NCBI RefSeq assembly: GCF_037042905.1
Contig: NC_087245.1
Coordinates: forward strand, 1,924,001 to 1,988,000
Reading direction: 5' to 3'
From: Lytechinus pictus
Taxonomy: Eukaryota
DNA length: 64,000 nt
The translations under genes were made by a program, and so were the position numbers. Below, piece by piece: positions 3,949 to 64,000 of the stretch (within the stretch, counting starts at the first letter, position 1; every line of letters begins with the position of its first letter). Below the pieces are notes generated by a model. That model saw nothing but the letters and a program-made list of their open reading frames with translations. It was not told where the DNA came from and did no database searches.

Positions 3949-22858
<18,910 letters not shown>

Positions 22859-40317: not shown

Positions 40318-43174
40318 TTAACAAACAATAAAACCAAAAAAAGTTCCAGACAGAGAAAAAATATAAATAAAGAAATTTTAAAAGAAAAAGCTAAGAAAAT
40401 GAAAAGGATGGCTAAAATATGAAATTCTTCTTTAGATATCATAGTAAGATCTGTCTCAAAATACGAATGTTAAGTTTTTCGATGTCTATGTTTTCTCTCG
40501 ACTTTTAAGAATATCCCCATTAATAAACCACTTATTTGTCCCCTTCAATGTTGGAGGTCATTGTGCCACTGCTTGTCAGTACCGATCATACCTCAACGAA
40601 AAGGTATCCAAATGTCTGAAAAATTAAAATTTCTTCAGAGTAGGGTCAAAACAGCAACAATCAAAGAAAAATCTATCCTATTAAGTGTTTGTTGGATCAG
40701 AATCATCAATTCGGAAAATTGACATCCCTTTCTCACTAGTGCAAAACCATGATTTAATATCATTTTGTATCAATAAATCTCTTGTCTAGGGTGCTTTATC
40801 TAGATATTGTTTTAAGAGGATAAAGGCGCTCAATAATTTCAACCACCCAATTTCCTCTATAACACTTTCCAGACAAACTATTGAGACATTAATGATATCG
40901 GACGCTTGACTTTAACACCATTAATATACATTCAACGTTTTCAAGAATATCAAGGCAGTAATAACTTTACCTATCAAATTGATTGCCTCTTTTATGATAA
41001 TTATTTGCTTTTAGCTTAAAACAAATAGTAAATAGTCCAACCTTGTTCCTATCACCATTGCTTTGTAGCAGTCTAAATATGCTTATTAGGTAAACGTTCT
41101 GTAGATTCGATGAAATTGCCGACCGTTTTCCCCTCCCTTTCTTTGCAATTGAGATATTCGAAGGATACCGTTTACGTTTGGCATTGACACATATGTTGTG
41201 TTGGTTTTTTTTTTCTTCTAATATAGAAATATTTCCCTACCTGATTGAAAAAAAAGATTCATTATCAAGGAGCCCTACAGTGGTTGACCGCGAGATCACA
41301 ATGTTGAGTTAACTGGAATTTCGGGCTAGAAGGGCTATACGGCAAAAGTTATATTGAAGGAAATTTATTACAGATACTTTATATACACATACATGAATAC
41401 ATTTTAAGCCGGTATGCCTATCTCCTAGCTATGTGGTATTGATATCTTATTACTTTTACTTTTGACCTCCAATAGATATCTTAAAGATTTAGGCTCTCTG
41501 ACTACCCGTATGCTCGAACGGTCATGTGTTAAAAATTATTTAATATGTCGCTTAGTGGTTTTTACAAAATACTTTGTTTGCTAGTCCATGCTATTTTGCT
41601 ATTTAAAGCTGAAATTTCATGTGCTTAATGGTTTTGTATTCCTTTGCATTGACTTGGTTTACCAGCTAGGCAAGATAGAGAGAGTTTCTATACACGAGTT
41701 TACGTTCTAAGAGTGAGATCTACTCTCTATTTGTAGATATATACGTGTGTATATGTGTTTGTTTTATCTAAAATTGATGTGAAGAGTTTTTGAATTAATA
41801 CTATCATCGATTTCACTTCACGTAATCTGGCTTTTAATTACACCGCTACATGTTGGTATTCTTAGTTTTTATAATATTAATAAGTGTCATGTACAACAAG
41901 TGTAATTACTTCATATCCTCCATCAAATAAGATGATCTATATTCCGTTGAAGACTGGTGTTTGGTGACCCTTTTGTGATGAACCTTCTAGATCGTTGTTA
42001 TTGTATGCTGTACGTGTTTCTTTTTGACATATCACGCAAAATCCGCTCCATTGTTTACTCAGGTACAACGTTGAAAATCATACTCCTAACAAGTTACATA
42101 AAGTACAGATTAAACCAACGTTTGACATGTTGGAACACTATTGAATTATTCCTTTCACTCTAGGGTCTTGAAATGCCAGTATGCAACAGAAGCCCCTCCA
42201 TCCAGTCGTTAGACTGTTAGAAGGACTGGTTCATTTTTTGAAGTGTGGTCGCACAATACATGATTGTTATCCTCTTCGCAGTTTATACAATCGTTACATG
42301 TTTCTTTATCATTATGGGTATTTGTCGAAGAATGTATGCTTTTTCTTTAATACACGACATTTGGTCATTATTTCTCCTCCTTGCTGTTGTTTCTACAATA
42401 TTCCTTCAAATTATATCTGCCGTTTTAATCTGTGTGTGATCTTGGGGGTTTGTGGGGGAGCATGCACCACCCTTGTTAGGTTTTGAATTGTACACAAAGC
42501 GATTTACTGCAAAGAACTTCTTATGCAGAATTTTCTTTTTTCATGCTAATGTATCAAATTAATTCCTCCTATTGTCTTACTTTTGGGAGATTCTTACACA
42601 AATGGTATATATGAACATTATTTACATATTGGACTTATTGATACATATCCAACACAATACAGTATCAGATGTTTCTCATTCTTTCGTTTTATTTATTATG
42701 AATGCTGTCCCAATCTTTTTATATCGAAGTATCTTATCGTAATGTCTATTATTAGTTCATTTGCTATGCTTTGCGATTTAAAGGGCTTGCATGTTCCTCC
42801 AATAACCTTTCAATTGTCTCATTATTGCTGGTGCTTGTTGGTTCTTCTTCCACCTCATGGAAATGTATATACATGGAAAATATAGACGCATTTTACGTCT
42901 TCCCTCGAAGGGTTAATGTCTGTAATATTGCCTAAAATACTTTGCTTATTTTGTTCCTGTTATATAGTCAGCTCTGAATATTCTCCCTCTTTTTATAATT
43001 TAAAGGTTCCTAGGATTTAAGTGCTACTGTATATTTGTTTTCTTTTTGTTTTTGTGTTTGTCGTTATTTGTCTGTATTCGTATCTGTCATTCTCGTAATA
43101 TCATGTCTTGTGTTATTTCGTTTAGCTGATCTGCATACTCCTCCCTATCTCTGGAGATCCCCTAGACATCCTTT

Positions 43175-46100
43175 GTGATGGCTGTAAACACAAATTTCCC
43201 ATTTTCTGATATAGATAATGATGAATTACACGATACTTTCCAGGCTGCCTTTAATTCGAAGTTTGATGAACATGATGAATGTAAAAATTCTGTTTTTCAT
43301 GACTCCGTAGCTCAAACTCTCAATGCACAAGCTAATCTTGATTCTCTTTCTGATCCTAATGATAATACGTATCAACATACCCCCTCGCTCTATTTTACTG
43401 ATAAACAGATAGCGTCGAAACAACTTGACAACAGTAACTTTCTAATGCTACATTGCAACATTCGCAGTGCCAACAAAAATTTTGAATCACTTCGTTCCCT
43501 TTTATTGAATTCTAAGCTCTTTTGTTCTGTGATAGGTTTGTCAGAAACGTGGTTTTCCCACTCTACTCAACTATCCTTTTATACGCTGCCAGGTTATAAT
43601 TTGGTCACAAATAATAGAATAGGGAAATCAGGTGGAGGCGTTGCTCTTTTTGTATCCCAACAATTCGATTACAGGTTAAGGCCTGATCTTACTTTAATGA
43701 ATGATGCTATTGAAACACTTTTTGTTGAAATTCTTTTGCCCAACGACAAACATATTCTGGTTGGAACGATTTACAGGCCGCCTAACTCCTCCCACGATGA
43801 CTTTTTAAATACATTCCATGGGTTATTGGCACTCCATGAGATGGTCAATAAAACGTGTTTTTTACTCGGCGATTTCAATATTGACTTACTAAAATACGAT
43901 ACTGATACTTTTGTTCAAACTTTTTCGGATGTAATAATGACAGCAGGTTTCCTTCCTTTGATAACCAAGCCAACTCGAATCACAGGTACATCGGCTACTC
44001 TCATCGACAATATATTTACAAATACCAGAAGTACTCTCTCTACGGGAATAATTCTTTCTGATTTGACGGACCATTTTCCCATATTTTCGCATTTTAAACT
44101 AGATACCAACGCCACTGAACACAAAGTTGATCATAATACTCGACGTGATTTTTCTGAAAATAATATGAATCTGTTCAATGAAGAGTTAGGAAATGTTGAC
44201 TGGTCAGGAATTTACAGTATTCAAAATGCCGAGGATGCATTTGACGCTTTTATGAATAAATTGAATCCATTAATGAATAGCTCTTTTCCCGTAGTGCGAT
44301 TCAAACGCTCTAATTACAAAAAGGTTCCAAGGTCCCCATGGATTACACCTAGCATTTTGCGCTCAATAAACAGAAAGAATAACCTTTACTTAAAAACTAT
44401 TTCAAAGCCTTGCGACAGTAATAGAAAAAAGTACACTGACTACAAAAATATTCTGACAGGTATACTGAGAAAATGTAAAAAGAATTATTTTCATAATCAA
44501 TTTGACCTCTATAGAAACGACGTTAAAAATACATGGAAAGTTATAAAAAACGTTATACAAGGTAACTTCAGAATGTCTACGCCCACGAAAATAAATGTTG
44601 ATGGTGAATTGGTAGAGGATCCCCTTGCCTTGGCAAATGTTTTTAATGACTATTTTGCATCCGTAGGCCAAAATCTTGCCAGCACAATCCCTGCCTCTTC
44701 TAAACACTTCACATCTTTTCTTAATGTCCCTAATCCAAATTCGATATATTTCACACCAACAGACGTAAAAGAACTAGCTGATATAATTTCTGGACTAAAG
44801 AATAAAATGAGTTCAGGATGTGACGATATAAGTAACATTCTCCTGAAAAGAAACCTGATACACATTATTAAACCTTTGACTTATATCTTTAATTTGTCTC
44901 TTTCTACAGGAGTTGTACCTTCTTCATTAAAGCAAGCCCGAGTAATCCCCATTTTTAAAAAAGGCGACAACGCCGTGTTGGGAAATTATCGCCCCATATC
45001 ATTATTGACATGCCTTTCGAAGGTTTTGGAAAAAGTAATTTTTGTACGCACGACAAAGTTTCTTAATATACATAAATTGTTTTATCCCCTGCAGTTTGGT
45101 TTTCGCGAAAAACATAGTACTACTCATGCCCTGTTGTCAACGATTAATAAGATTGCCAATGGAATTGACAAGTATGAGCATACTGTTGGGGTGTTCCTGG
45201 ACTTCTCCAAGGCTTTCGACACAATCAACCATGATATCCTTTTATACAAGCTTAATTATTATGGAATCAGAGGGATAGCCTTGGAGTGGTTCAGGAACTA
45301 CCTCAGCAGTAGGCAGCAATATGTTTCCATAGCAAATGTAGATTCCCCTCCCAAATCTATCTCATGTGGAGTCCCTCAAGGCTCAATCTTGGGTCCGCTT
45401 CTTTTTTTGGTCTACATTAATGATTTTTATAAATCATCAAGTACTTTATCATTCATTCTTTTTGCCGACGACTCAAATATATTTTTTTCTCATAAAGACC
45501 CCAAACATTTACTTGACACACTTAATAAAGAATTAAAACTAGTCTCAGAGTGGATCAAAGCCAACAAATTATCGCTTAATCTCACTAAAACAAATTACAT
45601 GCTCTTCAGCAATATCATTGATGAACTCCCAGGTAACATTATTTTTGATAATATTAATATTCAAAGAGTATTAAGTACGAAATTTCTAGGAGTAACTATC
45701 GACGACAGACTGTCATGGAAAGAACATATAGATAACACATGCAAAATAATTTCACGGAATATTGGAATTATAAATAAAGTTAAATTCTATTTTCCGACTC
45801 GTATATTATTAAACTTATACTCTACGCTGATACTCCCGCATTTGAACTTTTGTATTATTGCATGGGGGAGTTGTGCTGATTTTCATTTGAATAGACTTTT
45901 ACTACTTCAGAAAAAAGCTTTGCGCGTTATTTGCCATTCTCATTATCGGGCACATACGAATGTTCTTTTTAAAACTCATGGAATTCTTAAGATACATGAT
46001 CTTTACCATTATAATCTTGGATCTTTTATGTTCAACCTTAGTAAAGATGAACTACCAGACGTATTTTATTCTATGTTCACACGAAATATCAATGTACATC

Positions 46101-46306
46101 ACTACCTTACAAGATCTGCTGGACTTTTCCATTTACCTAGAACGAGGACATTATTAACAAACAAACTGTTTATATCTTCTGGTATCAAACTTTGGAATTC
46201 ACTTCCGCAAACTTTACGAAATAAGCCAACTATTCATAGCTTCAATAGAGCACTTAAAAAAAATCTAACCAATAACTATAACACTCACATCATTCATCCT
46301 ACTTAG
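43175..46306 (+). CDS. LINE ORF2: apurinic-like endonuclease + reverse transcriptase (L2/CR1 group)
   Basis: Uninterrupted 1043-aa ORF (first ATG 43178). APE motifs HCNIRS, LSETW, GDFN, TLIDNIF, SDLTDHFPI; RT motifs NYRPISLL, QFGFR, LDFSKAFD, GVPQGSILGP, FADD, FLGV. Confidence 0.97.
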   Translation: MMAVNTNFPFSDIDNDELHDTFQAAFNSKFDEHDECKNSVFHDSVAQTLNAQANLDSLSDPNDNTYQHTPSLYFTDKQIASKQLDNSNFLMLHCNIRSANKNFESLRSLLLNSKLFCSVIGLSETWFSHSTQLSFYTLPGYNLVTNNRIGKSGGGVALFVSQQFDYRLRPDLTLMNDAIETLFVEILLPNDKHILVGTIYRPPNSSHDDFLNTFHGLLALHEMVNKTCFLLGDFNIDLLKYDTDTFVQTFSDVIMTAGFLPLITKPTRITGTSATLIDNIFTNTRSTLSTGIILSDLTDHFPIFSHFKLDTNATEHKVDHNTRRDFSENNMNLFNEELGNVDWSGIYSIQNAEDAFDAFMNKLNPLMNSSFPVVRFKRSNYKKVPRSPWITPSILRSINRKNNLYLKTISKPCDSNRKKYTDYKNILTGILRKCKKNYFHNQFDLYRNDVKNTWKVIKNVIQGNFRMSTPTKINVDGELVEDPLALANVFNDYFASVGQNLASTIPASSKHFTSFLNVPNPNSIYFTPTDVKELADIISGLKNKMSSGCDDISNILLKRNLIHIIKPLTYIFNLSLSTGVVPSSLKQARVIPIFKKGDNAVLGNYRPISLLTCLSKVLEKVIFVRTTKFLNIHKLFYPLQFGFREKHSTTHALLSTINKIANGIDKYEHTVGVFLDFSKAFDTINHDILLYKLNYYGIRGIALEWFRNYLSSRQQYVSIANVDSPPKSISCGVPQGSILGPLLFLVYINDFYKSSSTLSFILFADDSNIFFSHKDPKHLLDTLNKELKLVSEWIKANKLSLNLTKTNYMLFSNIIDELPGNIIFDNINIQRVLSTKFLGVTIDDRLSWKEHIDNTCKIISRNIGIINKVKFYFPTRILLNLYSTLILPHLNFCIIAWGSCADFHLNRLLLLQKKALRVICHSHYRAHTNVLFKTHGILKIHDLYHYNLGSFMFNLSKDELPDVFYSMFTRNINVHHYLTRSAGLFHLPRTRTLLTNKLFISSGIKLWNSLPQTLRNKPTIHSFNRALKKNLTNNYNTHIIHPT

Positions 46307-47376: not shown

Positions 47377-47500
47377 ATGGAGAAGATACCCTCTAATTCA
47401 ATGTTAATAGGAAAATTCAAGATGCCAAGATCACCTCGGAATTACACATATATTTTAGTCATTTTATCTACTTTCGCAATATCATTAGTCAATGGACAAG
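47377..47500 (+). CDS. putative first coding exon (signal peptide) of the LRP2-like gene
   Basis: [26 protein letters not shown] from ATG 47422 (in-frame upstream ATG at 47377); strong donor AAG|gtaag, phase 1, matching the next exon. Confidence 0.75.
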
Positions 47501-50500
47501 GTAAGCATCATTCATATGTTTCATTTATTGTTTATATTTCTGTCAGTTACATAATAGTTCGAATATTTCATTCTGTACAGACGCAAGACGGGAGCAGACC
47601 AGAATATTGGATTTAAGTTTTGCTCAATCACATAACTTACATGCAGATGTCAAGGGAATTGGTCTCATGTTTTCCGATATTCTGAACAAAAAGGCATTAG
47701 TCAAAAGTGTGATATACAAAACACAATATCTAATCTATCATTTTGTGCACTTGAAATGATTAATTAGATATGTATTTGTCATATTGCAATTGATTGATTG
47801 AATTATTTTTTTTAAATATATATAATTAAGTATTATGATAAGGGGTAGAAGTAGAAGAACAAATGGGAAGATGAAGTTGACGTATACGATTGTGGTGATG
47901 ATGGTGGTGATGGTAATAGTAATGTTGGCCATGGTGGTGGTGGTGATGATGTTGGTGACATTGATTCATGTAGTAATGCTTATGATGGCGGTGGTTGGTG
48001 ATGGTAATGATGATGTTGATGGTAGTGGTAGTGGTGGTGATAAGATGATAGTGGTAGTGTTGGTAATGGTGATTATGATGGTGGTGGTGGTATTGATGGT
48101 AATGATTATGGTGATGTTGATGGTGATGATAATATTGGTTTTGGTGTAGGTGATGAGAGGAGGAGGATGATGATGATGATGACGATGATGAGGATGGTGG
48201 TGGTAATGTTTTTGTGTTGGTAATGGTAATGATAGTGGTGGTTGTGGTACGTGGTAGTTATGATGATGGTAGTGATGGTTATGATAATGGTGAAGTTAGT
48301 AATGGCGATTGCAATGATGATGGTGTTCATGATGGTAATGATGATGCTGTTGGTAAGGATGGTTATGGTAGTGATGATGGTAATGGTTATGATAGTGGTA
48401 ATGGTGAAAGTGGTAACTGTAATGGAAATGATGTTGGTGATGATGATGATAATGATGATGGTGATGGTTATGGTAATGATGATGGTGTTGGTGGTTATGG
48501 TAATGATGATGGTGATATTTAAGTAATGATGCTGGTAATGGTGGTGTGGAGATGTCGAAAAAATCACTACAATTATCAGCATTTTATACTTTATTATATC
48601 GCCACTTCTAACATCACCGCTACTACATACACCACTACTACCACTAGTGCTGCTACCACCACCACCAAAACCACCACTAGTCAACAGAACTAATATGTAT
48701 ATCAAATTTATAATCATTATAAGACAAACAATTTTTTTGTAGGTTCAAGTTTCCCTCTTAAGCAACGATGCTGATTCCACATGTTCAGGGTGGAATTAAT
48801 CGTTGTTTCCCTTGACAATGATTTCAAAAAATATTACATATTTTAGATAATAAGATGCAAGGGAAGTGGTGAATGGATAACGTCATCAGTCTCCTCGTTT
48901 GCATACCGACCAGGTTGTGCATATAGCCGTTTTGTGAAATTAAGCAGGGCTTTAAAATGCCATAGATTTCTTGTTTTGCATCTGATTTTGATGAAGTTTG
49001 GTGTGTTATGCTAGTTGGATTGTTCTCTATTTGTTAGAATCAGCTTTTAGTTGGGATGGACTAGAAATATGCATTGAATATGACTGCTCGCTCGTCCCGG
49101 GACTCCTCCTGCTTTTTATTTACTTTAATACCGTGACTCTTTCTTTTTAAATCATCCTTAGCTTTCACCACCACCATCACTTTCCCGATTTGAGTGTTTT
49201 CCCTTTAGTATACACGTTCACTCTTTACATTGAGTTATTTCATGTTTGATGGTTTTTTAACCAGATGTACTGCTACATGTTTACATACCTGTGAATTGTA
49301 CATAATTGTACATTAGTGCAATGATAATAAAACCTTTTCAATTTCAATTTCAACGATGTGATTCGATTATCTAGGATACTATATTACAGTACAGTTGTGT
49401 GTAAGAGCACAACATTATATCGAAATATCTAAAGTTCAAAACATAATATATTCTGCATCAGACCAAATCTACAGAGTATTTAAGCTTTTATGAATCTTAT
49501 CTTGAAAATACAAATGCCTATAGTTAAGATTTTTTTAATAGTCTTTAAACCATCATAAATAACAAAATAAATGGCAAATGATAATGTTTGAAGATCGGCA
49601 TTAGCAGTAAAGCCTATACCATGTTATCTCCGTGCCATTACTCCTGAATGGAGTATTATGATCGTGTATGTTCAAGCGCCAGATCACGGTTGAAAATTAA
49701 ACCACTAAAAGGACTATAAAAACCTTAAGCTAAAATGTTTACATGGTTGTTTATATTTTAACTTCTATACAATTTGTATGCGCTAATGGAAATCATGGTT
49801 GAAGAGATTCTTCTGCATAATCCAAATGTTACATAATAACATTAATAGAGCAGCTATTTGCAAAGGACTTCCTTAAAGCCATCTTTGTTTGATGCCATTG
49901 TCAGGTGCGGAACCACTGTGGTCAAGTTCATAAGAATGCATTCCTTGTGATTTCTTCATTGTTAAATTCTTTGAACACGTTCAGTTCGGCATTGTCTTTG
50001 AACGTACCCAACCGCCTTTTAATCACTTACGTCATCATTCATCTAGTAATTTTTTTTTAGCAAGAAAACATCGGACAGCACGTTTGAAAAGTAATCTCTT
50101 ATTTTTTTTGTTCAGAGAAAGCATTTATTAAACCGTATTCATATACATGTACGAAGGAAGTGATACAAGGTGGATGATGCCGACAATATATATATTTTTG
50201 TATATATTGGCGAAGAAGCTCAAAAAGCATTGAAGCTAGAGACGTAGCCTGGATTTCTTCAATTTTTATTAGTACAAGCTTTCGGCCATTTAGTTGGGCC
50301 TTCTTCAGGTATCTGAAGATGTACAAGACATAATGGCTTTACAATTACCATGCATATATTTGGATTAATCTACTAAATATAGGTATATCTTAAAAGAAAA
50401 TGTTTTACATCGGTAATGTTTAATTAATTAATATGTTTGTATATGTATATAGTTTTTGTCTATATATCAGCCACGGTTAAAATAATACTTTGATATTTGT

Positions 50501-53500
50501 TTATATAAATAATTGGCCTATTTTTCTTTGTTCAAAGTACATAGCTGTACTGCCTTCCTTATTTTGATGGAATTTCTCCTGCGTATAATGTGACATTCTT
50601 ATCTATGAATTGACCTGAAATAGTACGAGGATTGTCTTTTTTATGGCTTCTGTCAAATCACATCAACGATGTTTAGCATTTCTTATTTTATTACTATCTC
50701 TCTCAAATACATGTAGGCATAAGTAACGAATTTACCAACACTTTTTAAAGTTTTACTTTTTATGAAATCAATTTGTTTCTCTTTATTTTGATGAATCATC
50801 TTGTAGAAATCCAGAAGTATAATAAACACTATTTGATACAATAGATTGGAAAGTATTTGTCACGAGGTTGATGCAATATGAAGACTACTGAGGGTCTTTT
50901 TAATACAGTTCAGGAAATTCCATTCGGTCCATGGAACTACTATTGTACACAATAGATCGTGGCCTGAGAAGGGTAGGACAGTTACGTAATTATCCTTTCT
51001 CTGCTGCCGAATAGGTGAATAAGAATTGGAGGGTTTTGTTATGCTAATGCACCCGTTTAGTTCTGGGCTTGCATGCTATAACACAGCGAGACCTTACATG
51101 TCTTAATCCCTGTCCCTGTGTGTTAACCTGAATATGGTCATGAAATCTTAAGATCGTGCAAACGTAACGATACGTCATCGTATCTATCATTCACCTTAAA
51201 ATGTTCTTCCATTCACCTTAGAATGTAATGGGCGTATCCGAAAAAAACTAAAAACTTTTCTTGACAAAACATGTAAGTTACAACGAAAACCATATTTCTT
51301 AATAGAACGGTATTGATTCCATATTGAAGTTTCCAGGGCAATGCATCGCTGAACACAATTCCTCTGAAAATATGCTTAAAAATCAAAAGTATGAAACATT
51401 TTTTAATCAATGGCGATAAAGCAACTGCATAATTTCATTCATTCTTCACGATAAGTGCACTTTGCATATTATATTTATGTGCAGTGGAAGTGAAACAACA
51501 GTTCAATTTGCACTATTTTTTCAGAATAATATTTTTCATTTATATAATGATGCTCATTCATCCTACAAACCACATTAAGGTATCTTTAAAAAAAAAATGT
51601 TAATAGGTCGTTCTTTCGCGTGATTTATGTTTCGTGATTATTAATTTGATGATAGGCGCCTATTCTTCTAAGAGCGTTCGTGCTACTAAAAGCTGATTGA
51701 AATGTTATCGGGAGAGAACAAGACCGTGTTTGTCTGTCTTGCTTGTACATGTAATTAGCATAAAAAAGACTTCAATATGCTTCAGTTATAGGAGGCACGT
51801 ACAATATATTAAATAACGTTGCTTTTTCCATCATTAGTTTCATATATAGGCATTGCCCATAAAAACGACCTTGCTACGCATTTATAATGAGACTCGTCAT
51901 CGTCCATACATTTTAGATTACTTCTAAATAAATTCCCCTGAACAGATTCGTATTGTGTAATTATGTATCTTCTGTTTGTATCCATAAGGGAACTAATTAG
52001 CTTAAGATTGGAAGACATGTTTCTTTGGTACTTCATGAACACAATATGCAGGCCTTTACCCCGTGATAACCATAAATCGTCGATGTGTACATTTATTGTA
52101 TTACCCACTTATCATATCATGGTAACATGGGTCTATGTAAATAATCTAAATTAAGAATGGATGAATGTTTATCAATATCTTTCGCTTCCCCAAACACACA
52201 TATTTTAAGCTTGTATTTTTAAATGCAAAATATGCACTCATATCTGAATTAAAAAAAAAACAGAGCTTCAGACATTTTAGTTTAACTTTTAAGTAAAATG
52301 ACAGTTATTGGATTATAATTTTTTTTTAAATCAGTAAAATTCAAATGAGATCGGAAAGAGATCGGAAGTAAAATTGAAAATTTATTTTTGGGATTCTTTA
52401 TTCAGAAATAAAATGTTCAAATTGCCAGCACATATGTTTGTACGTGTACAAATTCCTTATTCATGTTAACTTTGTTCAATGTTTTGTAATATTTCTCTGA
52501 ATTTATTTCAATTACAGTCTTCTCTGATCAAAAAATATTTTACATGAGTAACCGTCTTTATAAACTAACAAATTTCATGATTTGATATTTCAAGATCAAT
52601 CGTCTCCTTGTCTTTATTTCTAGTTCCAACATGTGATAATTTCAATGGAGGATGTAGTGATATATGTACGCCCCTATCTGCATCAGGAGGAGTAATATGT
52701 TCGTGTACAGACAACAAAACGTTAGCCAACAATAACAGAGTCTGTGTCCGTAAGTATCAGTCCTTTCCTTGTATACGCACCCCTAATTATTCAACCAGTT
52801 ATTAAGTTCAATTTTCTCCCCAGTTTCATATGGCATTTCTCATGCTTATACCAATGAAATAAAAATTATTAGGCTACTCACCAAATATGAGAGTGATATA
52901 AGTAAGATGAATGAACGACTAGAAATGAACAAAAAGGGCAATTTAGGAGAAGGATCCTGTCTGATTTTTCATAGCTTATTTAAGAGTTTAACACACACAC
53001 ACATAGACCATAGCATAGCATTCACTCCGTTCCTACGCCTAAATAGACAAACCACATCTTCATGTTCGTAGAATGAATGCACCCAAATATTTAAATTATT
53101 ATCTTAAAAACATTGTCCATTATTACAGCACCAGATACAAAAGTTTGTGATGGATCGACCCAGTTTACATGTGCCAATGGAGATAAATGTATACCACTCA
53201 TCCAGGCTTGTGACATCACTGATGACTGCGGGGACGAGTCTGATGAGGGAACTAACTACTGCTGTGAGTATGAACATTGTCACATAAAGATGTAAACATT
53301 GCACCTCAATCTTTCAAGCTCACAATCTGCTTTAATTTTGAATAGGTAACGGTGTCCAACTAGAAAAATGTATTTCAGATGGATGCAGTTCAGAAACGTT
53401 CTGGGTGTACCGTGTTTTTTTTTCATAGACTTAAAGTTAATGCTTAATTATAAATTTTGTTTTATTTTATGATGCAAGACACTGGTGAAACCGTTGATTT

Positions 53501-56500
53501 CAGTAATGAAATCTCTATTTTTCATCATCAAGATGAGTAGGCCTATGTAGGAATCCTTTATTGATCTTAATCAAAGCAGCTTCCATTTTCCAAATCAGGC
53601 ATTAAAACCCGGGTTAAAACCATTCTTTCTCATTTTATGTCGAAACAGTTTTATTCAGAGGCCACCACGAATGAACAAGGGAATGGGCAGGTAGTAAATA
53701 GTGGCTGTGATAACGGCACTATCACTCTTCTATCGTTCGCCTTGCTCGCTTACACATTTCACTCATCCTAATCGTAATATAAATTTATACCTAATTGCAG
53801 CTGATAATTAATGCTATCAATTATTTTTTTTCTTTTGAACAGATGACCATAAATGCGGTGTAGATCAGTTCACATGTGACAACGGAAAATGTATTTATGA
53901 ACAGTTTAAATGTGATTTCTTCAATGATTGCTTCGATAACAGTGATGAAAACCCAGACATATGTGGTAGGTCTCTTTTTGTAGAAACAAAGGAAGGAATA
54001 ATTTGATATTGCATTTTGAAACTGAATAAGAAATTAATCAACGTAAAATCAAACGAGTTTATCAAGAGGCAAACGATTAAACTAAAGATTATTTATGATA
54101 AAACTAAATAAAGGCCTAGATACGAATGAAGAATTGTAATTTTTCGTATGTGAATGAGAGAACAACAGAATAAAACAAATGCATTTTGCTTAACTTCCAT
54201 TATTTTGGACTTTGAAACGTAATACTGAGCTTAAATGGTCAGGTTATCATCGTTGTTTTTTAAAACATATCTTGATTTTTTTTTCTTTCAGGATTTGTTA
54301 CATGTTCCCCTGGATCGTTTGCGTGTGCCAATGGTATCTGTATATCAAACACTTCTCTATGTAATGGTATTGATGAATGTTTAGATGGCATGGCTAGTGA
54401 TGAACTTGGTTGCCGTAAGTTACTTTGTATTTATTACAACACTCTTCCTCTCTATTTCGCTCACTTTCTCTTTCTCTCTAACATTTTCTCTCATATTATT
54501 TCTTCATCCTTTCATGAAATTAGAAACAAATTCCCTTCTCGTATTTTATCTTAGTGTCAGAATAATCTATTTTATTATTGAATAATCATGAATCATATGT
54601 ACACGATAGATTATTACTTTGTCTCTAATACTCTCATGTATTTTAATGCTAACCTGTATTATTGTATTCTTATCACTATAAATAAAGATAACTCAGTTGG
54701 ATTGAAATTTATTGCTTAAACAATGACAGCAAAATACGGTCTTCAATACCATTTCATTACGATGTCATTCAGATTAGAAAGGTATAAAATGCCATCTCCA
54801 ATTCCTCCATTTCTTCTATTACATTCCCACAGCCGACAGAACATGTTCCCCTGGTACTGTCCCGTGTGAGAACAGTAATATCTGTATTCCACCCCAGTGG
54901 CTGTGTGATCGATCTAATGACTGTGGTGATAACTCGGATGAAGACAGCTCTTTCTGCAGTAAGTATATGGGTGTAATGATTGTCCGAGGACCGTTACACT
55001 GGAGTGAGTGTATGGGTTTAATGATTGTCCGAGGACCGTTACACTGGAGTGAGTATATGGGTGTAATGATTGTTCGAGGACCGTTACACTGGAGTGAGTT
55101 TATGGGTGTAATGATTGTCCGAGGACCGTTACACTGGAGTGAGTATATGGGTGTAATGATTGTCCGAGGACCGTTACACTGGAGTGAGTTTATGGGTGTA
55201 ATGATTGTCCGAGGACCGTTACACTGGAGTGAGTATATGGATGTAATGATTGTCCGAGGACCGTAACACTGGAGTGAGTATATGGGTGTAATGATTGTCC
55301 GAGGACCGTTACACTGGAGTGAGTTTATGGGTGTAATGATTGTCCGAGGACCGTTACACTAGAGTGAGTATATGGGTGTAATGATTGTCCGAGGACCGTA
55401 ACACTGGAGTGAGTTTATGGGTGTAATGATTGTCCGAGGACCGTTACACTGGAGTGAGTTTATGGGTGTAATGATTGTCCGAGGACCGTTACACTGGAGT
55501 GAGTATATGGGTGTAATGATTGTCCGAGGACCGTTACACTGGAGTGAGTTTATGGGTGTAATGATTGTCCGAGGACCGTTACACTGGAGTGAGTATATGG
55601 GTGTAATGATTGTCCGAGGACCGTTACACTGGAGTGAGTTTATGGGTGTAATGATTGTCCGAGGACCGTTACACTTGAGTGAGTATATGGGTGTAATGAT
55701 TGTCAGAGGACCTTTACACTGGAGTGAGTTTATGGGTGTAATGATTGTCCGAGGACCGTTACACTGGAGTGAGTATATGGGTGTAATGATTGTCCGAGGC
55801 CAATACACAACCAAATTGTTTTAAGCCAGCCCCCCACCCCCGCATCTTAAAAGGTGACACTTAACTACATTTTCTACCAATCAGGAGTGCGTATGCGAGA
55901 CGTGCGTTGATTTGAGTTGTTTCTACACTTGGTCATTGTCGTCTACATATCAATTGACATGGATTAACAATATGTATCAAGGAGATATTTAATGTTCTAT
56001 CGCCATTACAAATTACTTTAAAAATATCAATATTAATTTATTGATAAAATAATCTTTTATAGCAAAACCCATGAAATTTCTATCCATCTCTTTGTCGAAT
56101 AGAATAATTTTACTAGAATAGCATTGATATAGATGTGCTCATTGAAAAATAACTTTATGAAGTAAGAACTAGGGAAACAGTTTGAACAAAAAAAAGAGAT
56201 AATATGACTGTCTTCTATACCCCCCCACCCCCCCCCCCCCCCCCCTCTGTAGGTCACATGTCTAGGTTTTTCAGTCAATCAGTCTTGGAATATGTCAAGA
56301 GTTAAGTTATTGTATTGTCAGATATGCTTTACCATAAATTGCATGGTTTTATGCCATGCTGTATAATTATTGAATATTTAATCTTATTGTAATCTATTCT
56401 TTTTAATGACCATATTGTATATTATAAGCTGAGATATTTAATTCATGTATACGTGAAGCGCATAGAGACTTCGTGTATTATGCGCTATATAAATGTAATT

Positions 56501-59500
56501 TTTTTTATTATTATTAATCAAAGCAAGGTAAAGTTGTCAAACATCAAATGCTGATGAAATGCAGCCCTTATTCGTTCATCCTATTCTCTCCCTTAGGAAA
56601 CCGAACATGCTCAGTGGAAGATTTCTTGTGTCAAAGTGGTAACTGTATCCCAGGAGCCTGGTTCTGTGATGAAAGATCAGATTGTCCTGATGGCGACGAC
56701 GAGGTTGAAGATGTCTGCAGTAAGAATTTTCCCTTTGGCCTGAAAAGGCGATTTTCTATTTAAAGAAAGGAAGAAAAGACAAAGGGAAAACATTGGGAAT
56801 ATGGCAGGGGAGAAGAGAACGATAGAAGGGAATGTGAAACTGAAAACGAGAAAGGGAAACAAAAAATAGAGATTATGAGATATAGAGAAAGGGGGGGGGG
56901 AGAGAGAGAGAGAGGGGGAGAGAGAGTGAACAACTAGTACACACTTGCAAGACTATTTGGTTTTCATGGTTTATAGTAATTCTACGATGGAAAATATATG
57001 CTTCCTGATTGAAAAGTTCTTGCTATAAAATGTGTTTTTAAGAAAAGGTAGAAAAGTTTACGACAGAAAATGATGAGTATGGCTGTCGTGAAATAGATAG
57101 TTTCGATTCCCATATTATCTAATTCATCGGAATAAACATTCCAAATCAACACAAACCACAAGATCACTGTGACTGATCAAGGTATCTGTGTTGAATGGAA
57201 TGCTCATACCGATCGATCGATGACTGAATGCCAAACTACTCTTATTATTATACTCTTAGATATATTTCGTGATGGATCTCTTAATATTTTCTTTTTTTCC
57301 CTTTCTCTCAGCTGCTCCTAATTTCACTTGTCATTATGGTCTCTTTACCTGTGATGACGGAACATGTATCACTGAGGAATGGGAATGTGATGGTATACCA
57401 GAATGCCCAGACGGCTCAGATGAATACAGAAGTTGCCGTAAGTCGGACTAACGACCTTGATTGAAATATGATCGCAAAAGTCTTTCGAATGATTATCTTA
57501 AGAAAATAAACAATGCGATTAAACTGTGAAATAACTTTTCATAATCTCTTAACGATTTCAATCAAGCCTGTCCAATTTTCATGTGACAATGATGGGTGAA
57601 GAAATTTAATGAGGCTACAATGAATGACATTTAGCCTTGATATGGTGTTTTCTAAACAAATCGAAATAATTGTTGTGTCCATTCAGCTATTTCGATTCCT
57701 AGATCCAAGAACTTTCTTTAATTCGAAATGCTTTAAAGCTTTGACACCAAATATATTTCCATTCTCCATAGCGGAATATGTTTGCCCGGAAAACTTCTAC
57801 AAGTGTGAGCAGAAGAAGCATCTAAAGAACAGATGCATCCCCGACACTGCTGTATGTGATGGACAGGTTGATTGTGCCATGGGAGATGATGAATTCCAGA
57901 ACTGCAGTAAGTATAACTATTTGATATGATTGGTATCAACGGGCACCATGCCTCTGCAGGTATTAGGAAACGATAACCTGTAAGCTTGCTATGTTTTGGG
58001 GCATTGACAAATGGAGAATCTGTTGCCGAATCAGATGACGGTTGATGGCGATTATCAGACTTGGTTGAACCTTCTACTACCGTCGATGTTGTTCAAACAC
58101 GCCTCCTAGTTTTCTAATGTCCCATAATACCTACCGCCATTTATATATTGTTACTTAGACCCTGTGCCATAATTCAGCTATTACCATCGCTATTTCTCAA
58201 TTTCTTCTTTCCAGCTATGCGTACCTGTATGCCAGGAGAGTATTCATGTCGAAATGGTCTTTGTATCAGAGATGAATTCCTCTGTGACCATGAGAACGAC
58301 TGTGGGGATCAATCAGATGAAGGATCAGCGTGTAGTAAGTTGATTTCTCATGGATGAATTATTACACTGCCCCTTTCATCTCCCACTTACCCCTACTGTA
58401 GGATTAAGTGGGAGATGTAGGGGCCCTTGATTAATGTTTAATTCTATTCCCTCCATTCTTACCTATTCCTCCTTTTCCATAATCTTCCATTCTCGTCCAT
58501 TCCTTCTTCCTTCCATTCTAGCTTAATGATTTTAACGAATGACAATTTCATTTTCACATCTTGTGAAAAGTCAGAGTAAATTAAGTACTTAAACAAATTA
58601 TCTTTGCTCTCTCTCTCTCTTTCTCTCTTTCTTGGTTCCATGACATCAACTCCAAACACAAATTGAGTGACCAACTTCCACCCTGGATTTAACACTATAC
58701 CCTATCATCTATCATAAACCTAACATAAAACCCTATTACAACCCTAACGCTAACCCTATATTTTAGACGAAATAAATCCCGGAGCAATTGTCGCCGGAGC
58801 CAATGTCGTGTCACCTCTTTGGTTTTCCTCTGTCCCTATATCTCCCTTTCCTCGATAACAATATATCTCTCCTTTCTATTCTCCAGACTATGCTCGATGT
58901 GATCCTGAAACGGAATTCACCTGTAACAACGGTTTGTGTGTGATGGCATCCTGGGTATGTGACGGTGTTAGTGATTGCAGAGATCGTTCCGATGAACACG
59001 GATGTGGTACGTGGTAACGAAAGCATTTTATTCCTAAAAGTCAGCATCCTGTAACTATACTCGGAATTAGCATCATAGTGTTATAGAACTCCGGTTACTT
59101 AGACCTGGTGGGTGTTTCATAAAGTTGTTCGTAAGTTAAGAGCGACTTTAAGAACGACTGATGATCCTTTCTTGTGGTAAATGGTATATTCAGTGGCGAT
59201 GGTTAAGCGCGTAAGAAAGGTTTACCATTCGTTCTTAAAGTCGCTCTTAACTTACGTACAGCTTTATGAAACTGCCCCCTGTTATACTTTTGGTTGAGTA
59301 GGTTAATTGTAAAATCTATAAACAACGTCTTATGTCACCAGCTCAATATTGCTTGTGTAAGATAATAGGTATTTATTATAATCTGAATCTGACTGAATTG
59401 TTTGTCTAAGGTAGATATTAAGTTATCTGAGATACAGGTTTATATAACAGTCAGTATCATGTGATTCTCATTTCTGTATACATCAAGAACATTTCCCGCT

Positions 59501-62500
59501 GCCAAAAATGTTGAATTTCTAGTATCAGAAAGTAAATTTGATTGTGGTTTCTCATTTCAATCTTTGACCAGCTATCTCTTCCATATATTAGCAACTCGTA
59601 GCATACGTAAAGTGATAATTTATCGGTAATTCATTACATAAGTAAACATATGAGAAAATATGAAATCTTTCTAATTTTCTTTATCTATTTAGATGAAAAC
59701 ACACCTACATGTGCTCCTGGTGAATATATGTGTGGAGATGGATCCTGTATTCTACAACAACTCGTTTGTAATAACGAACCTGACTGTAATGATGGTTTAG
59801 ATGAATACCGCTGCGGTACGTTCAGGGTTTTCAATTATTTCCCCTTTAAAGATTAAGATTAAACCACAAAAGGGAATTTATCAAATTATTCAAACGATCA
59901 GAAGCGATCAAATCTATGAAGCAAGTGGGGTCGTGGCCCAGCTGAAGCCCTGATGCTTGAATAGACAGCATAAAGCAGATCATCAAATTCAACGTGTATT
60001 ATTCTCCGAGAATATCAAAACACAATATGTGTTACTCTGCAGTGAGACTTATGAAGTGTATCCATATAATAGTGATTTGGGGTTTGAGTGTTTTGAATTA
60101 TCTCAACTCCTTGATGTACACTCCATCCAAGCTTAACTAGACAGCATTCAATACTTGCGTAGATAGAGACACATACAATTCTTATTCAGACCGTCGAGTT
60201 TAGTCTTTATTATTTCATATTGTACTTACTAACAGGGGTGAATGAATGTGAGAACAATGCCACTGGGTGCCATCATAACTGTGTGAACACGGCTAATAGT
60301 TACTACTGCACATGTAATGATGGGTTCCGGTTGAACGCTGACGGGCGAACGTGTGACGGTAAGTATCAATATGCTTCTCACTCAAGGTCAGGGTCCCCGT
60401 CTTCCGATGAGATGATATAAATTTACATCAAACTCAAAGTGCGATTGATTTGAAATCGTAAGATAAGAGATATGAAGTCTGAATCAATCGCACTTTGAGT
60501 TTGATTTGAATTTATCTCAATCCCTTGTAAGAATGGGCCCAAATACTGAAGTTTACTACCCGAATACTTGATATAAGACTTATGATTACAAGCAAATTCA
60601 AAATGACTTACCAGTATGCTGTTTATAACCTATTCCGATTATTGGTTGATAGTTTGGGATTGATATTTTATTCCATTATTCTTTGTAATTTTTATAAACT
60701 AATCGCGTTGTCATACTGGGTCTTACCGAAACTATTTATGTATGCTTGCCTTTATTCTGAATCTGTATACGATCGACGACAACACTGAAATCATAGTCAC
60801 ATATGTACCTACATGTATGATTTTAAGCAGATATATAAACTAGTGCATGATAGGCAATTGTTTCCTCCAACACAAGGTAATGAATTATCAGTAATTTTCT
60901 TCGATTTTCCTACGACATTTATTCATTAATTTGGATTGTGTTTTCACGTTTGAAGTTGGATCAATTTCTCTTGCCCCTCAATTTACGAGTGATATCAGTT
61001 GGGAGAGTATTTCTGTGGATATAACTATTGATGAAATTTGAATAAATTGATGATAATGAAATTATTATAATGGAATTGTTTATCACTTTTTATTGCAATT
61101 GTAGAAATAAACGAGTGTGTTGAGACTCCGGGAATCTGTAGCCAGATATGTGAGAACACGGTTGGAGGATACATCTGTATGTGCGTTGATGGCTACACCC
61201 TACGTAATGATAGGAGATCGTGTAAACACAACTCGGGTAAGATTTAACATGAAGGAGGAGCCGTGGCCGAGTGGTCTAAGGCGCCTGGCTATACATAGAA
61301 AGTCCGGGGTTCGATCCCCTATGCCCGTGAGCAAAGCATTTAATGTACAATGCTCTTTTATCCTGCTTTCAAATAAATGGAAATGCTATATGCATTATTG
61401 GTAACTTGGTGTGCACTTTAAAAAAAATGTCCTCGTTCACACAAATAAAATATAAAATAAAAATAGAGATTGCATCGATGTGGCTGTGAAAATCTGTTCG
61501 TAAAGCAGCTGATAAACTGTTGTCTTATGTTAACTTTCTTTTGGGAGTCACATGCACTGTAAGCGGGAAAGTGAATGTGGAACGAATCATAAATGGTCTG
61601 TCCGATTTATTCATGACCGTATTTCAGCATGCACTTCACAGACGCTTTCTGCAACGTTCAGAATTCTATTGAAAATGCCCGTCAAATCACAATGGACAGG
61701 TTAGAGGTCATTGTCGAAAGTTGGTGGACCAGACGAAAAATTGCAAGTATGTCGTTTGTTCAGAGTCCATGACGACACTGCTGTTTTGATTCACTGATTT
61801 TCGACAAATAACGGCTGCTGACAAAGCGTCAGCGAAGTAATTGCGAAATAATTAAGATGTCTTATTGCATTGTTATAAATTCAAGGACATTTGATGGGTA
61901 TAGAGAAGAAAAATTGATGTCGCATTGAGGTCTTGCTACTTCCTTCCTTATTTATTAAACTACACTGGCGCCATAACAGCCAGTGAAAGGAAATGTCGCA
62001 TATAAGAGTACTATCTAAAAGCTATTTCAAACTGATAATAAGCGTTTCTATTTCCAAGCACCAGTCAAAGTATATAATATATCATATGCAAGTCACTTCA
62101 TAATATTTTCTATAATTTTTGTATTTTCCCTAAAGCAATTGATCCCATAATCATCTTCAGCAACATATACTATGTTCGGTCTCTCTCACTTGATGGACGT
62201 GAATACAATCTGATCGCAGACGACTTCGGGAGCGCTGTAGCTTTTGATTTCGACTATGCTGAGAGTCGTCTCTACGTCATGGATATAGTGCGAGGGCACA
62301 TCCTTCGAATGTGGGTGAACGGAACAGATCGTGAGGTCATCATCGACGACTTCGTCAACGGTGGAGAGGGAATGTCTGTTGATTGGGTTGGAAGGTATAT
62401 AGTTGATCTTAAAAACCTGTGACGAAAGAGACCATGTAGTAATTGAGAAAGGCATGGTGTCTTGTGGAGCTCTTATGGTACTAATGATACCATCAGGTAT

Positions 62501-64000
62501 AACATGTATGGTCGTCTCATTTTAGTTTCAGCTTGTCTTTTTTGTCCCCCTTTGATACTTTTTTTCTTGATTTTCTCAATTTTTTGTCTGTTTTTTTTTA
62601 CCATTTGAAAGTGAAATATTGTAGATCTATGCGCATACTTGCGCTGAAAGAATAGCTGTTAATAAGTTATTAAGAATGACACCTGAAATCTATAACAATA
62701 ATTGTCATCCAAATGTCACATTAAATCCTGACAGTGAATAATTATTGCATATTTGTAATAACTTATTCCAGAAAACTGTACTGGGTTGATAGTGTTAACG
62801 ATGTGATGGAGGTAGCTGAGCTGGATGGTAGTCAGAGGAAAACGTTAGTCTATACTGGAATGGATCAACCAAGGGCTGTGGTGGTTAACCCTAAACATGG
62901 GTAAGATATTACAGAGATACTCTTTAGATTTCTCCAATTAAACTGTTCAAATGATTTGTGTAATGCTTGATGTATTATTTTCTTTAATTTCAAGTTGAAG
63001 TATTACCGAACTCTTCTTCTTCTAAAAAAATGAATAAATAAAAAAGTTTTGATATTTTTAGTGACATCCTTCAAAAAGATAAAAAGAAATATTTCAAAGT
63101 TTTGCATTTGGACGGTTATTTGGTACTTTTAGTGGCTGGAACGATCCATTGAAATAAATAGCAAGCTAGTATTAATCACCCTTGTTCTTTCACTAAACGG
63201 AAACAAATTCTCAACACTAAAACAGGTTGTTTTGATTCAATTTCTTTGTCTACAGTCACGTGTACTGGACTGACTGGGGTCTCGATGCCTATATTGGACG
63301 TGTAGGCATGGATGGTACAGGAAAGACTCGTTTCCATGACAACAGGATGGTCTTTCCAAATGGACTGACCATTGATTATGCTGCAGAGCGACTATATTGG
63401 TGTGATGCCCATCTAAATCATGTAGCGTGAGTGTTTTTTATATCCTTGTTGAATGAAGGGCTCATGGTCCAATGTTCGTGCCACCAATAAATGGTGGCAT
63501 GCAGCCGATGGCATTTGAAAAAAAATAGGAACACCTTTCCAAATAACGTATACACTGTCATCCAATGCTTGCCTCCTTTGAATAACGTTGATAACAATGC
63601 CTTCGAGATTGACATAAGATTCCACTTTTTTTTCTTCACATATATTTTTTAAATAATTCAGCCGAAGGTCAAACCTTCAAGATCACCGCACACTTTTTAA
63701 CCATGGTTTATAATGTTATAAAACGATGGTGTGACACCCACGAGAGAAATTGTCCTACACAAAATGTTTGCCCCAACACGATTCTTTCACAGAATAAATG
63801 TCTCTATGATTTCTAGATTTTCTGACTTGGACGGTAACACCCTCCATATAGTACCAACCCGAGGCACACCATTGGCACACCCTTTTGCCATCTCACTATT
63901 CGAAGATGACGTCTACATAACAGACTGGAATGAGAAAACAATACGTCGGTTTGACAAACTCGGTGGACGGCACATCATGGAGTATGTGGAAACCCTTCAG
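47377..64000 (+). CDS. LRP2: LRP2/megalin-like LDL-receptor family protein, multi-exon, 3'-partial (gene span)
   Basis: In-frame GT-AG exons: signal peptide 47377/47422-47500; EGF 52624-52749; ten LDLa exons 53129-59815; EGF 60236-60358 and 61105-61236; YWTD propeller exons 62136-62394, 62772-62900, 63256-63426, 63817-end. Domain order and motifs (PDRTC...NSNICIP, IIFSN.YY.R.L..DG) follow megalin cluster III. Probably an LRP2-derived paralogue rather than the canonical gene. Confidence 0.9.
47890..48545. repeat. degenerate (GAT/GGT/AAT)n low-complexity tract
   Basis: Trinucleotide-periodic tract in the first LRP2-like intron. Confidence 0.92.
48768..49062. mobile_element. diverged right-half copy of the TTAA MITE at 31814-32669
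   Basis: Colinear similarity (acgtcatcagtctcctc.tttgcatacc.accagg...gtgaaattaagc...gatttttgatgaa...tggact). Confidence 0.78.
52624..52749 (+). CDS. LRP2: LRP2-like exon, EGF-like domain
   Basis: tag| [41 protein letters not shown] |gtaag. Confidence 0.92.
53129..53263 (+). CDS. LRP2: LRP2-like exon, LDLa repeat 1
   Basis: [43 protein letters not shown] bounded. Confidence 0.93.
53843..53965 (+). CDS. LRP2: LRP2-like exon, LDLa repeat 2
   Basis: [41 protein letters not shown] bounded. Confidence 0.93.
54292..54414 (+). CDS. LRP2: LRP2-like exon, LDLa repeat 3
   Basis: [41 protein letters not shown] bounded. Confidence 0.93.
54833..54958 (+). CDS. LRP2: LRP2-like exon, LDLa repeat 4
   Basis: [45 protein letters not shown] bounded. 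Confidence 0.93.
54959..55799. repeat. 45-bp minisatellite, about 18.7 copies, starting at a splice donor
   Basis: Unit gtgagtwtatgggtgtaatgattgtccgaggaccgttacactgga; two copies have a 1-nt deletion. Confidence 0.97.
56597..56719 (+). CDS. LRP2: LRP2-like exon, LDLa repeat 5
   Basis: [41 protein letters not shown] bounded. Confidence 0.93.
57312..57437 (+). CDS. LRP2: LRP2-like exon, LDLa repeat 6
   Basis: [40 protein letters not shown] bounded. Confidence 0.93.
57772..57906 (+). CDS. LRP2: LRP2-like exon, LDLa repeat 7
   Basis: [45 protein letters not shown] bounded. Confidence 0.93.
58215..58334 (+). CDS. LRP2: LRP2-like exon, LDLa repeat 8
   Basis: [40 protein letters not shown] bounded. 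Confidence 0.93.
58634..58815. mobile_element. unclassified MITE, same family as 25121-25323
   Basis: ggttccatgacat ... ggagccaatgtcgtgtcacc, internal aaccct repeats, TCTT on both flanks. Confidence 0.7.
58887..59006 (+). CDS. LRP2: LRP2-like exon, LDLa repeat 9
   Basis: [40 protein letters not shown] bounded. Confidence 0.93.
59108..59278. mobile_element. palindromic MITE (PIF/Harbinger-like, CTG flanks)
   Basis: About 50-65-bp inverted arms gtttcataaagttgttcgtaagttaagagcgactttaagaacga / tcgttcttaaagtcgctcttaacttacgtacagctttatgaaac. Confidence 0.85.
59693..59815 (+). CDS. LRP2: LRP2-like exon, LDLa repeat 10
   Basis: [41 protein letters not shown] bounded. Confidence 0.93.
60236..60358 (+). 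CDS. LRP2: LRP2-like exon, calcium-binding EGF
   Basis: [40 protein letters not shown]. Confidence 0.93.
60391..60540. mobile_element. palindromic MITE
   Basis: atcaaactcaaagtgcgattgatt / aatcaatcgcactttgagtttgat inverted pair with ggg...ccc ends. Confidence 0.75.
61105..61236 (+). CDS. LRP2: LRP2-like exon, calcium-binding EGF
   Basis: [43 protein letters not shown]. Confidence 0.93.
61257..61427 (+). mobile_element. tRNA-derived SINE
   Basis: A-box gtggccgagtgg, B-box ggttcgatccc, no complete acceptor stem, tRNA-unrelated body and A-tail. Confidence 0.8.
62136..62394 (+). CDS. LRP2: LRP2-like exon, YWTD beta-propeller
   Basis: [20 protein letters not shown]...[15 protein letters not shown]...EGMSVDWVG. 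Confidence 0.92.
62772..62900 (+). CDS. LRP2: LRP2-like exon, YWTD beta-propeller
   Basis: [42 protein letters not shown]. Confidence 0.93.
63256..63426 (+). CDS. LRP2: LRP2-like exon, YWTD beta-propeller
   Basis: [20 protein letters not shown]...[24 protein letters not shown]. Confidence 0.94.
63817..64000 (+). CDS. LRP2: LRP2-like exon, YWTD beta-propeller (runs off window)
   Basis: FSDLDG...[30 protein letters not shown]... Confidence 0.92.

Follow-up and report, generated by a model that had tools for sequence, protein, structure and literature searches.

The locus and its gene

The window, a stretch of 64,000 nucleotides from the sea urchin Lytechinus pictus (assembly GCF_037042905.1, contig NC_087245.1, here C1, positions 1,924,001 to 1,988,000 of the forward strand), is numbered from 1 at C1:1924001, and positions above 64000 continue into the downstream stretch C1:1988001-2003660. 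It ends inside a gene of 42 exons that spans 47377 to 79660, reaching 15.7 kb beyond the window end, and encodes a receptor laid out like the C-terminal half of megalin, LRP2 (Table 1). All 41 introns are of the GT-AG type and the 2014 codons are free of stops. The 18 exons of the window all carry AG/GT ends and splice into a single open frame, with every one of exons 2-14 ending in phase 1. Between 52600 and 64000, hidden Markov models (HMMs) of our own found exactly 10 LDLa, 3 EGF and 5 YWTD-repeat matches. These counts bear out an earlier sequence-only reading of the window, which had described a signal exon with a phase-1 donor at 47500, one EGF, ten LDLa, two EGF and a YWTD propeller in one frame.

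The complete protein consists of a signal peptide, an EGF, 10 LDLa, two EGF, a YWTD propeller, an EGF, 11 LDLa, two EGF, a second YWTD propeller, further EGFs, a transmembrane (TM) helix at about residue 1820 and a tail of about 165 residues. In Pfam it shows 21 Ldl_recept_a stretches, together with Ldl_recept_b, EGF_CA and cEGF. Hydropathy, from which the signal peptide and the single TM helix are predicted, peaks at about residues 26-36 and 1820-1845. The tail holds FENPIF, a motif also found in Strongylocentrotus purpuratus, which is of NPxF type, with no NPxY containing tyrosine, and which fits [FY]xNPx[YF], the internalisation consensus of the LDLR family. It also contains a proline-rich TPPTSP stretch, and the C-terminus is not SDV. 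The second propeller carries a furin-type RRKKR site. The mini-receptor imagined in the sequence-only reading is thus present, while the secreted form that it also allowed is ruled out by the TM helix and the megalin-type tail, which follow cluster IV and propeller 8 downstream of the window.

The product is identical (2014/2014) to a public annotated protein, P0275, whose 90% cluster includes the 2014-residue models XP_041482271.1 from L. variegatus (96.9% identity) and XP_030830689.1 from S. purpuratus (84%; named LRP2 in RefSeq). In both models an equivalent signal exon is joined to the same EGF. The gene encodes an intact type I receptor of 2014 residues that is spliced, expressed and conserved in three camarodont urchins.

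Transcript evidence

Two raw RNA runs carrying the same species label (X19 and X20), of which about 6% each was used, were mapped on 51000-54900. The junction 47500>52624 is supported by 43 and 76 reads, 119 in total, with an agreement of 0.98 and 0.99. Exon 1 lies outside the mapped span and is visible only as the letters of loose read ends, which upstream of exon 2 correspond to the 30 bases at the end of exon 1 (47469-47498) with one allele difference; the span gives no transcription start. Among the loose-end rows listed for the two runs, 52624 has no other upstream partner. Four further GT-AG joints appear in the RNA, including that from exon 2 to 53129 (79 and 116 reads) and others among exons 3-6. 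Coverage is nearly all exonic, and first mates are entirely minus-strand, which in most stranded libraries denotes plus-strand RNA. A contig from run X1 stops 120 bases before the junction, at about 47379, although contigs cannot mark a start. RNA and window differ at 54323 and 54889-54890 (three exonic places) in every read of X19, X20 and X1, and at one further base of the signal exon; these differences are most simply alleles. Run X15 yielded short unrelated pieces only.

The splicing of an own signal exon to 52624, as proposed in the sequence-only reading, is thereby confirmed, and none of the observations that would have overturned it was made: the rows listed show no splicing from farther upstream, and the window and the following 100 kb (164 kb checked) hold no N letters. 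The same reading had noticed no LDLa or YWTD exon upstream of 52624, which agrees with our HMMs (0 LDLa, 0 EGF and 0 YWTD in six frames of 1-52600) and with tblastn of three LRP2 N-terminal halves against 1-52600 (no match at E<=1).

Relationship to LRP2

From residue 45 onwards the protein aligns to residues 2656-4454 of rat megalin. It is 44-46% identical to the LRP2 of crinoid, amphioxus and frog, entering them at about residue 2450-2655, and 42-46% identical over the LRP2 set, compared with 38% for carp LRP1. LRP2 is the best match for 33 of the 37 exons with any match (38 were queried). Exon 2 scores 52.8 bits against crinoid LRP2 and 39.3 against the best non-LRP2 sequence, and the best domain match of the first YWTD exon is rat LRP2 3199-3282, with 66 bits versus 26 for the next propeller. 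For 15 of the 21 LDLa repeats the best match is the corresponding LRP2 repeat (6/10 in cluster III and 9/11 in cluster IV), so that clusters III and IV, with 10 and 11 repeats, stand in register together with propellers 7 and 8. The assignment of the in-window part to cluster III, proposed in the sequence-only reading, is upheld by the propeller match, the start of the alignment and the repeat register. Two trees, one from a quick search (26 rows, SH-aLRT 100) and one from a careful search (17 rows, no mixture model, 100/100), place the protein in an all-echinoderm clade that includes the full-length crinoid LRP2, with LRP1 apart. An origin from LRP1 is ruled out by this separation and by the lower identity.

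Judged by its sequence, the gene is LRP2 by descent, while it fails the canonical giant layout of four clusters (7, 8, 10 and 11 repeats), eight propellers and about 4,600 residues. The vertebrate, amphioxus, mollusc and crinoid megalin models examined all have four clusters and about 4,400-4,650 residues, the crinoid LRP2 keeping 4385. Compared with LRP2/megalin (rat 8JUT, mouse 8EM4, human 9CWM; crinoid XP_033127863.1; amphioxus P0271), the urchin protein is collinear from the EGF before cluster III to the tail. It shares the 10 + 11 LDLa repeats, the Glu/Arg/Asn triad of propeller 7 (beta7) and the V[TS][FY]RxG and ENP tail motifs, and it is without clusters I-II and propellers 1-6 (about 2,600 residues), that is, the head, beta-cage, beta-basket and ligand-binding domain I (LBD I). 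The head domain, beta3-beta6, is not in the gene and was not found in the genome searches. E664, R707 and N751 make up the triad; their aligned counterparts in P0232 are E3275, the PR arginine and N3370, the arginine being residue 3326 there and 3324 in PMC11145282. The RRKKR of propeller 8 (beta8) is common to invertebrate LRP2s and does not occur at that place in frog or rodent.

Search for a full-length LRP2

The sequence-only reading had taken the gene for a partial duplicate of a full-length parent, a claim that found no support. The 812-Mb genome was searched with single exons of propeller 7 (17/17 candidates scored) and propeller 8 (79/79), and both searches returned only the urchin gene, one shorter paralogue at C1:16.6 Mb with eight repeats in its first cluster (LA8, where LA stands for LDLa) and other LRP classes. 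No second LRP2-type beta7 or beta8 exists among these candidates beyond that of the LA8 paralogue.

The missing N-terminal half was sought with crinoid beta3-6, brittle-star beta5-6, amphioxus beta1-2 and frog beta4-5 in heuristic searches, in which the best 36 of 294, 71 of 181, 63 of 203 and 70 of 134 candidates were scored. Among these best candidates, the four queries found only generic YWTD exons, none of them on C1 upstream of the gene. No locus gave ordered matches to propellers 1-6, and propeller 4 gave weak, scattered matches. When pieces from 43 stretches (40 of them YWTD matches) were compared with a panel of receptors, LRP2 led by at most 8 bits wherever it came top, and no piece was a clear match to the N-terminal half of an echinoderm LRP2. 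In the control, 10/10 pieces of the brittle-star N-terminal half scored best against another LRP2 at the corresponding position, with leads that were mostly 13-28 bits and twice below 6. It is likely that the genome contains no full-length LRP2. The protein searches, which bear on full-length LRP2 in sea stars, sea cucumbers and non-camarodont urchins, covered the best 150 of 327, 120 of 851 and 120 of 1552 rows.

Several loci were considered as the N-terminal half and rejected: C9:21.2 Mb is LRP4, C9:23.2 Mb is LRP5/6 and C1:26.06-26.15 Mb is the LRP1 locus. The full-length parent was likewise not found at C1:16.57-16.61 Mb, which is the LA8 paralogue. The N-half queries had their top match at C11:32.32 Mb, in a short gene of LDLR/VLDLR type that encodes a TM helix and NPVY. 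This compact gene (C11:32315900-32332800, tail motif FDNPVY) is followed by a gypsy-like retrotransposon open reading frame (ORF) of 1349 codons, identified by eye. Elsewhere, an open frame of about 1944 codons on the minus strand at C13:19555000-19561000 is dense in LDLa repeats and may resemble egg cortical-granule or fertilisation-envelope proteins.

Proposed function

It is rather probable that this gene is the urchin's own LRP2, cut to its C-terminal half and working as a multiligand endocytic receptor. In rat megalin, beta3-beta6 build the head, which provides a ligand cage and about 40% of the dimer area, a basket is made of beta1-2 together with cluster II, and cluster I touches the leg of the partner (Goto et al. 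2024, PMC11145282). Cluster III is described there as a ligand arm that is flexible, and cluster IV as wrapped round beta7 to form a pocket. The dimer interface, two composite ligand sites and part of the pH switch are assigned to the N-terminal half (PMC11145282). The urchin protein retains cluster III, the pocket and the leg. By analogy, basic proteins and lipoproteins would be bound by the calcium-loaded LDLa repeats of cluster III and by the pocket of cluster IV and beta7, FENPIF would direct the receptor to clathrin pits, and cargo would be released by the low pH and calcium of the endosome. Because beta3-beta6, the wing (beta1-2 and cluster II) and cluster I are absent, the main dimer contacts of megalin would be lacking, and the urchin receptor probably exists as a monomer or as a weak dimer held together at the legs, and its ligand range would be narrower. 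In rat megalin, K4027 makes contact with CR1-2 of the other protomer (PMC11145282); this lysine is kept in the urchin protein and in 11/11 aligned rows, trimmed paralogues included. A homodimer prediction for residues 1345-1812 gave a score of 0.00 with neither alignment nor controls and counts neither way. The RRKKR loop of beta8 suggests a furin cleavage as in LRP1, where the chain break in propeller 8 goes with a B8-mediated alpha-beta association (PMC13403279).

Half-length receptors in other animals

A close parallel comes from the brittle star Amphiura filiformis, whose LRP2-like gene has three RefSeq isoforms by automatic annotation. Isoforms X1 and X2 place propellers 5-6 before the EGF, while isoform X3 (XP_072034881.1) has a signal exon at that same EGF. 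X3 shares the architecture of the urchin protein, with 2014 residues and 46% identity, although in the brittle star it is one of the isoforms annotated at a longer locus.

Further trimmed half-megalins are known from Lytechinus (XP_041476930.1, P0403), Asterias (XP_033629026.1) and Apostichopus (XP_071823211.1). They fall within the echinoderm LRP2 clade and share the layout SP-LA-EGF2-YWTD-(EGF)-LA11-EGF2-YWTD-TM (SP, signal peptide). They differ from the urchin gene in having 8 or 5 repeats in the first cluster, in missing the leading EGF, in being 40-41% identical and in forming a clade of their own (100/100). Repeat III.7 stands at position 5 or 2 in these forms, implying that the first 2 or 5 repeats of cluster III are gone. 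In Holothuria leucospilota, KAJ8019651.1 (3375 residues) contains two tandem half-megalin units, LA5...LA11 followed by EGF-LA10...LA11-TM, and is either a receptor that expanded again or the product of a fused gene model.

LRP1 has the same 10 + 11 repeats in its C-terminal half, in contrast to its lower identity, its separate clade and its own locus in the urchin. Half-size LRP1-like models were seen in Argopecten irradians (P0114, LA4...LA11; P0409, LA10...LA9), with two propellers each; P0114 groups with LRP1 and both are without a clear signal peptide, which would fit fragments as well as a convergent half-LRP1. Vitellogenin receptors, for their part, have three propellers. The insect vitellogenin receptor (VgR), endocytic and of 1817 residues, resembles the urchin protein in its size of about 1800 residues and its two LDLa clusters, and differs from it in the 4 + 7 repeats of HaVgR (PMC4871585). 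The engineered receptor mMeg (cluster IV and tail) traffics through endosomes (PMC9630597); unlike the urchin protein it is artificial and has cluster III missing. A search of the Atlas returned generic LDLR-family clusters only, the top look-alike, by feature score only, being automatically named 'vitellogenin receptor'.

Origin of the half-length gene and alternative explanations

Since the brittle star has a short isoform entering at the same EGF, the half-length gene may have arisen from an internal first exon, after which the upstream half was lost. An internal promoter and signal exon in the intron before the EGF of cluster III would have produced a short isoform, still annotated in the brittle star; the urchin line would then have lost the upstream exons, and an early copy of the short form would have given rise to the further-trimmed LA8 and LA5 paralogues. 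The chances are about even for this scenario in full, in which an internal-promoter short megalin of Eleutherozoa founded a half-size family in urchins, sea stars, sea cucumbers and brittle stars and camarodonts dropped the full-length form, carrying out endocytosis without the head, cage and basket, which the cryo-EM model puts at the heart of ligand capture and of release by pH. The signal exon is indeed an exon of its own, as the sequence-only reading had it, but may not have been acquired at the truncation, as it may be older.

An independent origin with the same function is distinctly less likely: here a deletion or translocation would have removed the N-terminal half and a new signal exon would have been recruited without any relation to the brittle star. 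The lack of similarity between the two signal exons speaks for it, as does the phase-1 intron before the EGF, which, like most LDLa and EGF introns here, would accept any phase-1 signal exon, and so does the upstream neighbourhood, with a Toll-like receptor, a long interspersed nuclear element (LINE) and a PAS-domain gene and no LRP relic. However, signal exons diverge fast, making their dissimilarity weak evidence, the brittle star uses the same entry point, and a Holothuria unit also starts with this EGF, followed by LA10. It is improbable that the gene is a partial duplicate beside a full-length LRP2 that is absent from the assembly or was missed. Partial duplication of LRP2 did occur in echinoderms, as the LA8/LA5 clade (100/100) testifies, the searches were heuristic, and the multi-propeller loci at C3:77.9-78.1, C16:26.9 and C11:15.8 Mb have no class; a full-length copy would nevertheless need its own beta7 and beta8, for which the fully scored searches gave only the LA8 paralogue, the RefSeq LRP2 of S. 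purpuratus is itself the 2014-residue form, and the pieces of the unassigned loci do not favour an LRP2 N-terminal half. Gene fission, in which that half would persist as a diverged separate gene pairing in trans, is very improbable: unassigned YWTD loci exist and K4027 is kept, yet none of these loci has ordered matches to propellers 1-6, and K4027 is equally kept in the trimmed paralogues.

A re-purposing of the half-receptor for yolk or nutrients (major yolk protein, lipoprotein or a carotenoid carrier) would fit either origin, and is unlikely. Its size and two-cluster layout, which recall the insect VgR (PMC4871585), and the name of the top Atlas cluster point that way, against a phylogeny that gives LRP2, a repeat register of clusters III and IV, and a faster-evolving LA8 paralogue that could fill the role just as well. 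Neither LRP nor megalin occurs as a term in a 2026 review on the reproduction of urchins (PMC13666137). A yolk-receptor role is possible but unsupported. An artefact, in which a break in the assembly or a mistaken splice model hides a full-length gene, can hardly be entertained, being already refuted by the unbroken 164 kb, the 119 junction reads and the same junction in models of two other species, barring rare long transcripts below the sampled depth; the same length of the L. variegatus and S. purpuratus models likewise excludes an assembly artefact.

Several observations weigh against a truncated megalin that descends from a short isoform and acts as the urchin's receptor. The trees leave the branch order within the echinoderm clade open, and of the rat megalin features, K4337 and the two glycan sites in cluster IV are not kept. 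The urchin and brittle-star signal exons have no detectable similarity and may have separate origins, and the Amphiura X1 and X2 models are without a signal peptide and clusters I-II, so that they provide no full-length brittle-star LRP2. The absence of the N-terminal half is likely, not proven, given incomplete candidate scoring and a possibly incomplete assembly. Three exons of C1:26.07-26.10 Mb put a chordate LRP2 ahead of the next-best class by 2-8 bits, the other exons there being clearly LRP1, and the multi-propeller YWTD loci at C3:77.88-78.15, C16:26.93-26.97, C11:15.75-15.82, C11:29.48-29.52 and C8:10.0-10.1 Mb have no clear LRP class, possibly reflecting an expansion in urchins. The signal peptide assignment is based on hydropathy only, and the functional part of the proposal is drawn from the structure of rat megalin and from LDLR-family biology.

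What is already known comprises the family, all the parts and an automatic RefSeq entry for the protein. Literature searches, with the older urchin LDLR-family papers out of reach, found no description of an LRP2 truncation in echinoderms. The gene looks like the urchin's megalin itself rather than a spare duplicate, and is more surprising as such. An urchin with the C-terminal half as its only canonical LRP2 would be a natural deletion experiment in a genetically tractable animal, raising the questions of whether uptake and release depend on the head and the dimer and of which ligands the unit of cluster III, beta7 and cluster IV binds alone. It would also illustrate a route by which two-cluster LDLR-family receptors can emerge from giant ones, through an internal first exon and subsequent loss or duplication, and it provides, together with the LA8 paralogue, two candidate receptors for protein and yolk uptake in urchins.

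Features of the locus and its surroundings

Table 1. Exons of the half-length LRP2 gene, its paralogue and neighbouring features (positions above 64000 in continued numbering)
Feature	Position	Strand	Remarks
Exon 1, predicted signal peptide	47377-47500	+	in-frame ATGs at 47377 and 47422, hydrophobic core, phase-1 GT donor
Exon 2, EGF preceding cluster III in LRP2	52624-52749	+	best match crinoid LRP2 at 2454
Exons 3-12, ten single-exon LDLa (cluster III)	53129-59815	+	HMM, splice sites, register
LDLa exons 3-7	53129-53263, 53843-53965, 54292-54414, 54833-54958, 56597-56719	+	
LDLa exons 8-12	57312-57437, 57772-57906, 58215-58334, 58887-59006, 59693-59815	+	
Exons 13-14, two calcium-binding-type EGF	60236-60358, 61105-61236	+	
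Exons 15-17, most of YWTD propeller (megalin beta7)	62136-62394, 62772-62900, 63256-63426	+	
Exon 18, end of beta7	63817-64046	+	leaves window at 64000
Exons 19-42	past window	+	EGF, 11 LDLa (cluster IV), 2 EGF, YWTD beta8, EGFs, TM, tail
TM helix	78014-78107	+	
Stop codon	79658-79660	+	
LA8 paralogue	C1:16571500-16606000	-	SP-LA8-EGF2-YWTD-EGF-LA11-EGF2-YWTD-TM by L. variegatus model; 40% identical
LINE-type element ORF	43166-46303	+	endonuclease and reverse transcriptase, RVT_1 and Exo_endo_phos (Pfam); unbroken, 1046 codons
Toll-like receptor ORF	33880-36618	-	single exon, 913 codons, LRR and TIR (Pfam)
PAS_9 exon	3912-4076	+	Pfam
Open stretch, 187 codons	22295-22855	+	no Pfam match

Upstream of the gene, the LINE and the Toll-like receptor named in the sequence-only reading were both recovered by Pfam. 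The LINE-type ORF ends about 1.07 kb before exon 1, and the element is probably young, since the signal exon is also found in S. purpuratus. The same reading had placed a KCNH gene here; the PAS_9 exon is consistent with this, and this exon and the open stretch at 22295-22855 are probably pieces of a KCNH/EAG channel gene. A bacterial promoter scan, a model not applicable to animal DNA, gave chance-level results. Within the gene, a tandem array of 45-bp units (54954-55799, 18.8 copies, 95% matches) starts at the donor site of exon 6. Downstream, the next gene (about 86850-91300 in continued numbering, minus strand) has exons which, as we presume, resemble a TRAK/Milton-type adaptor.

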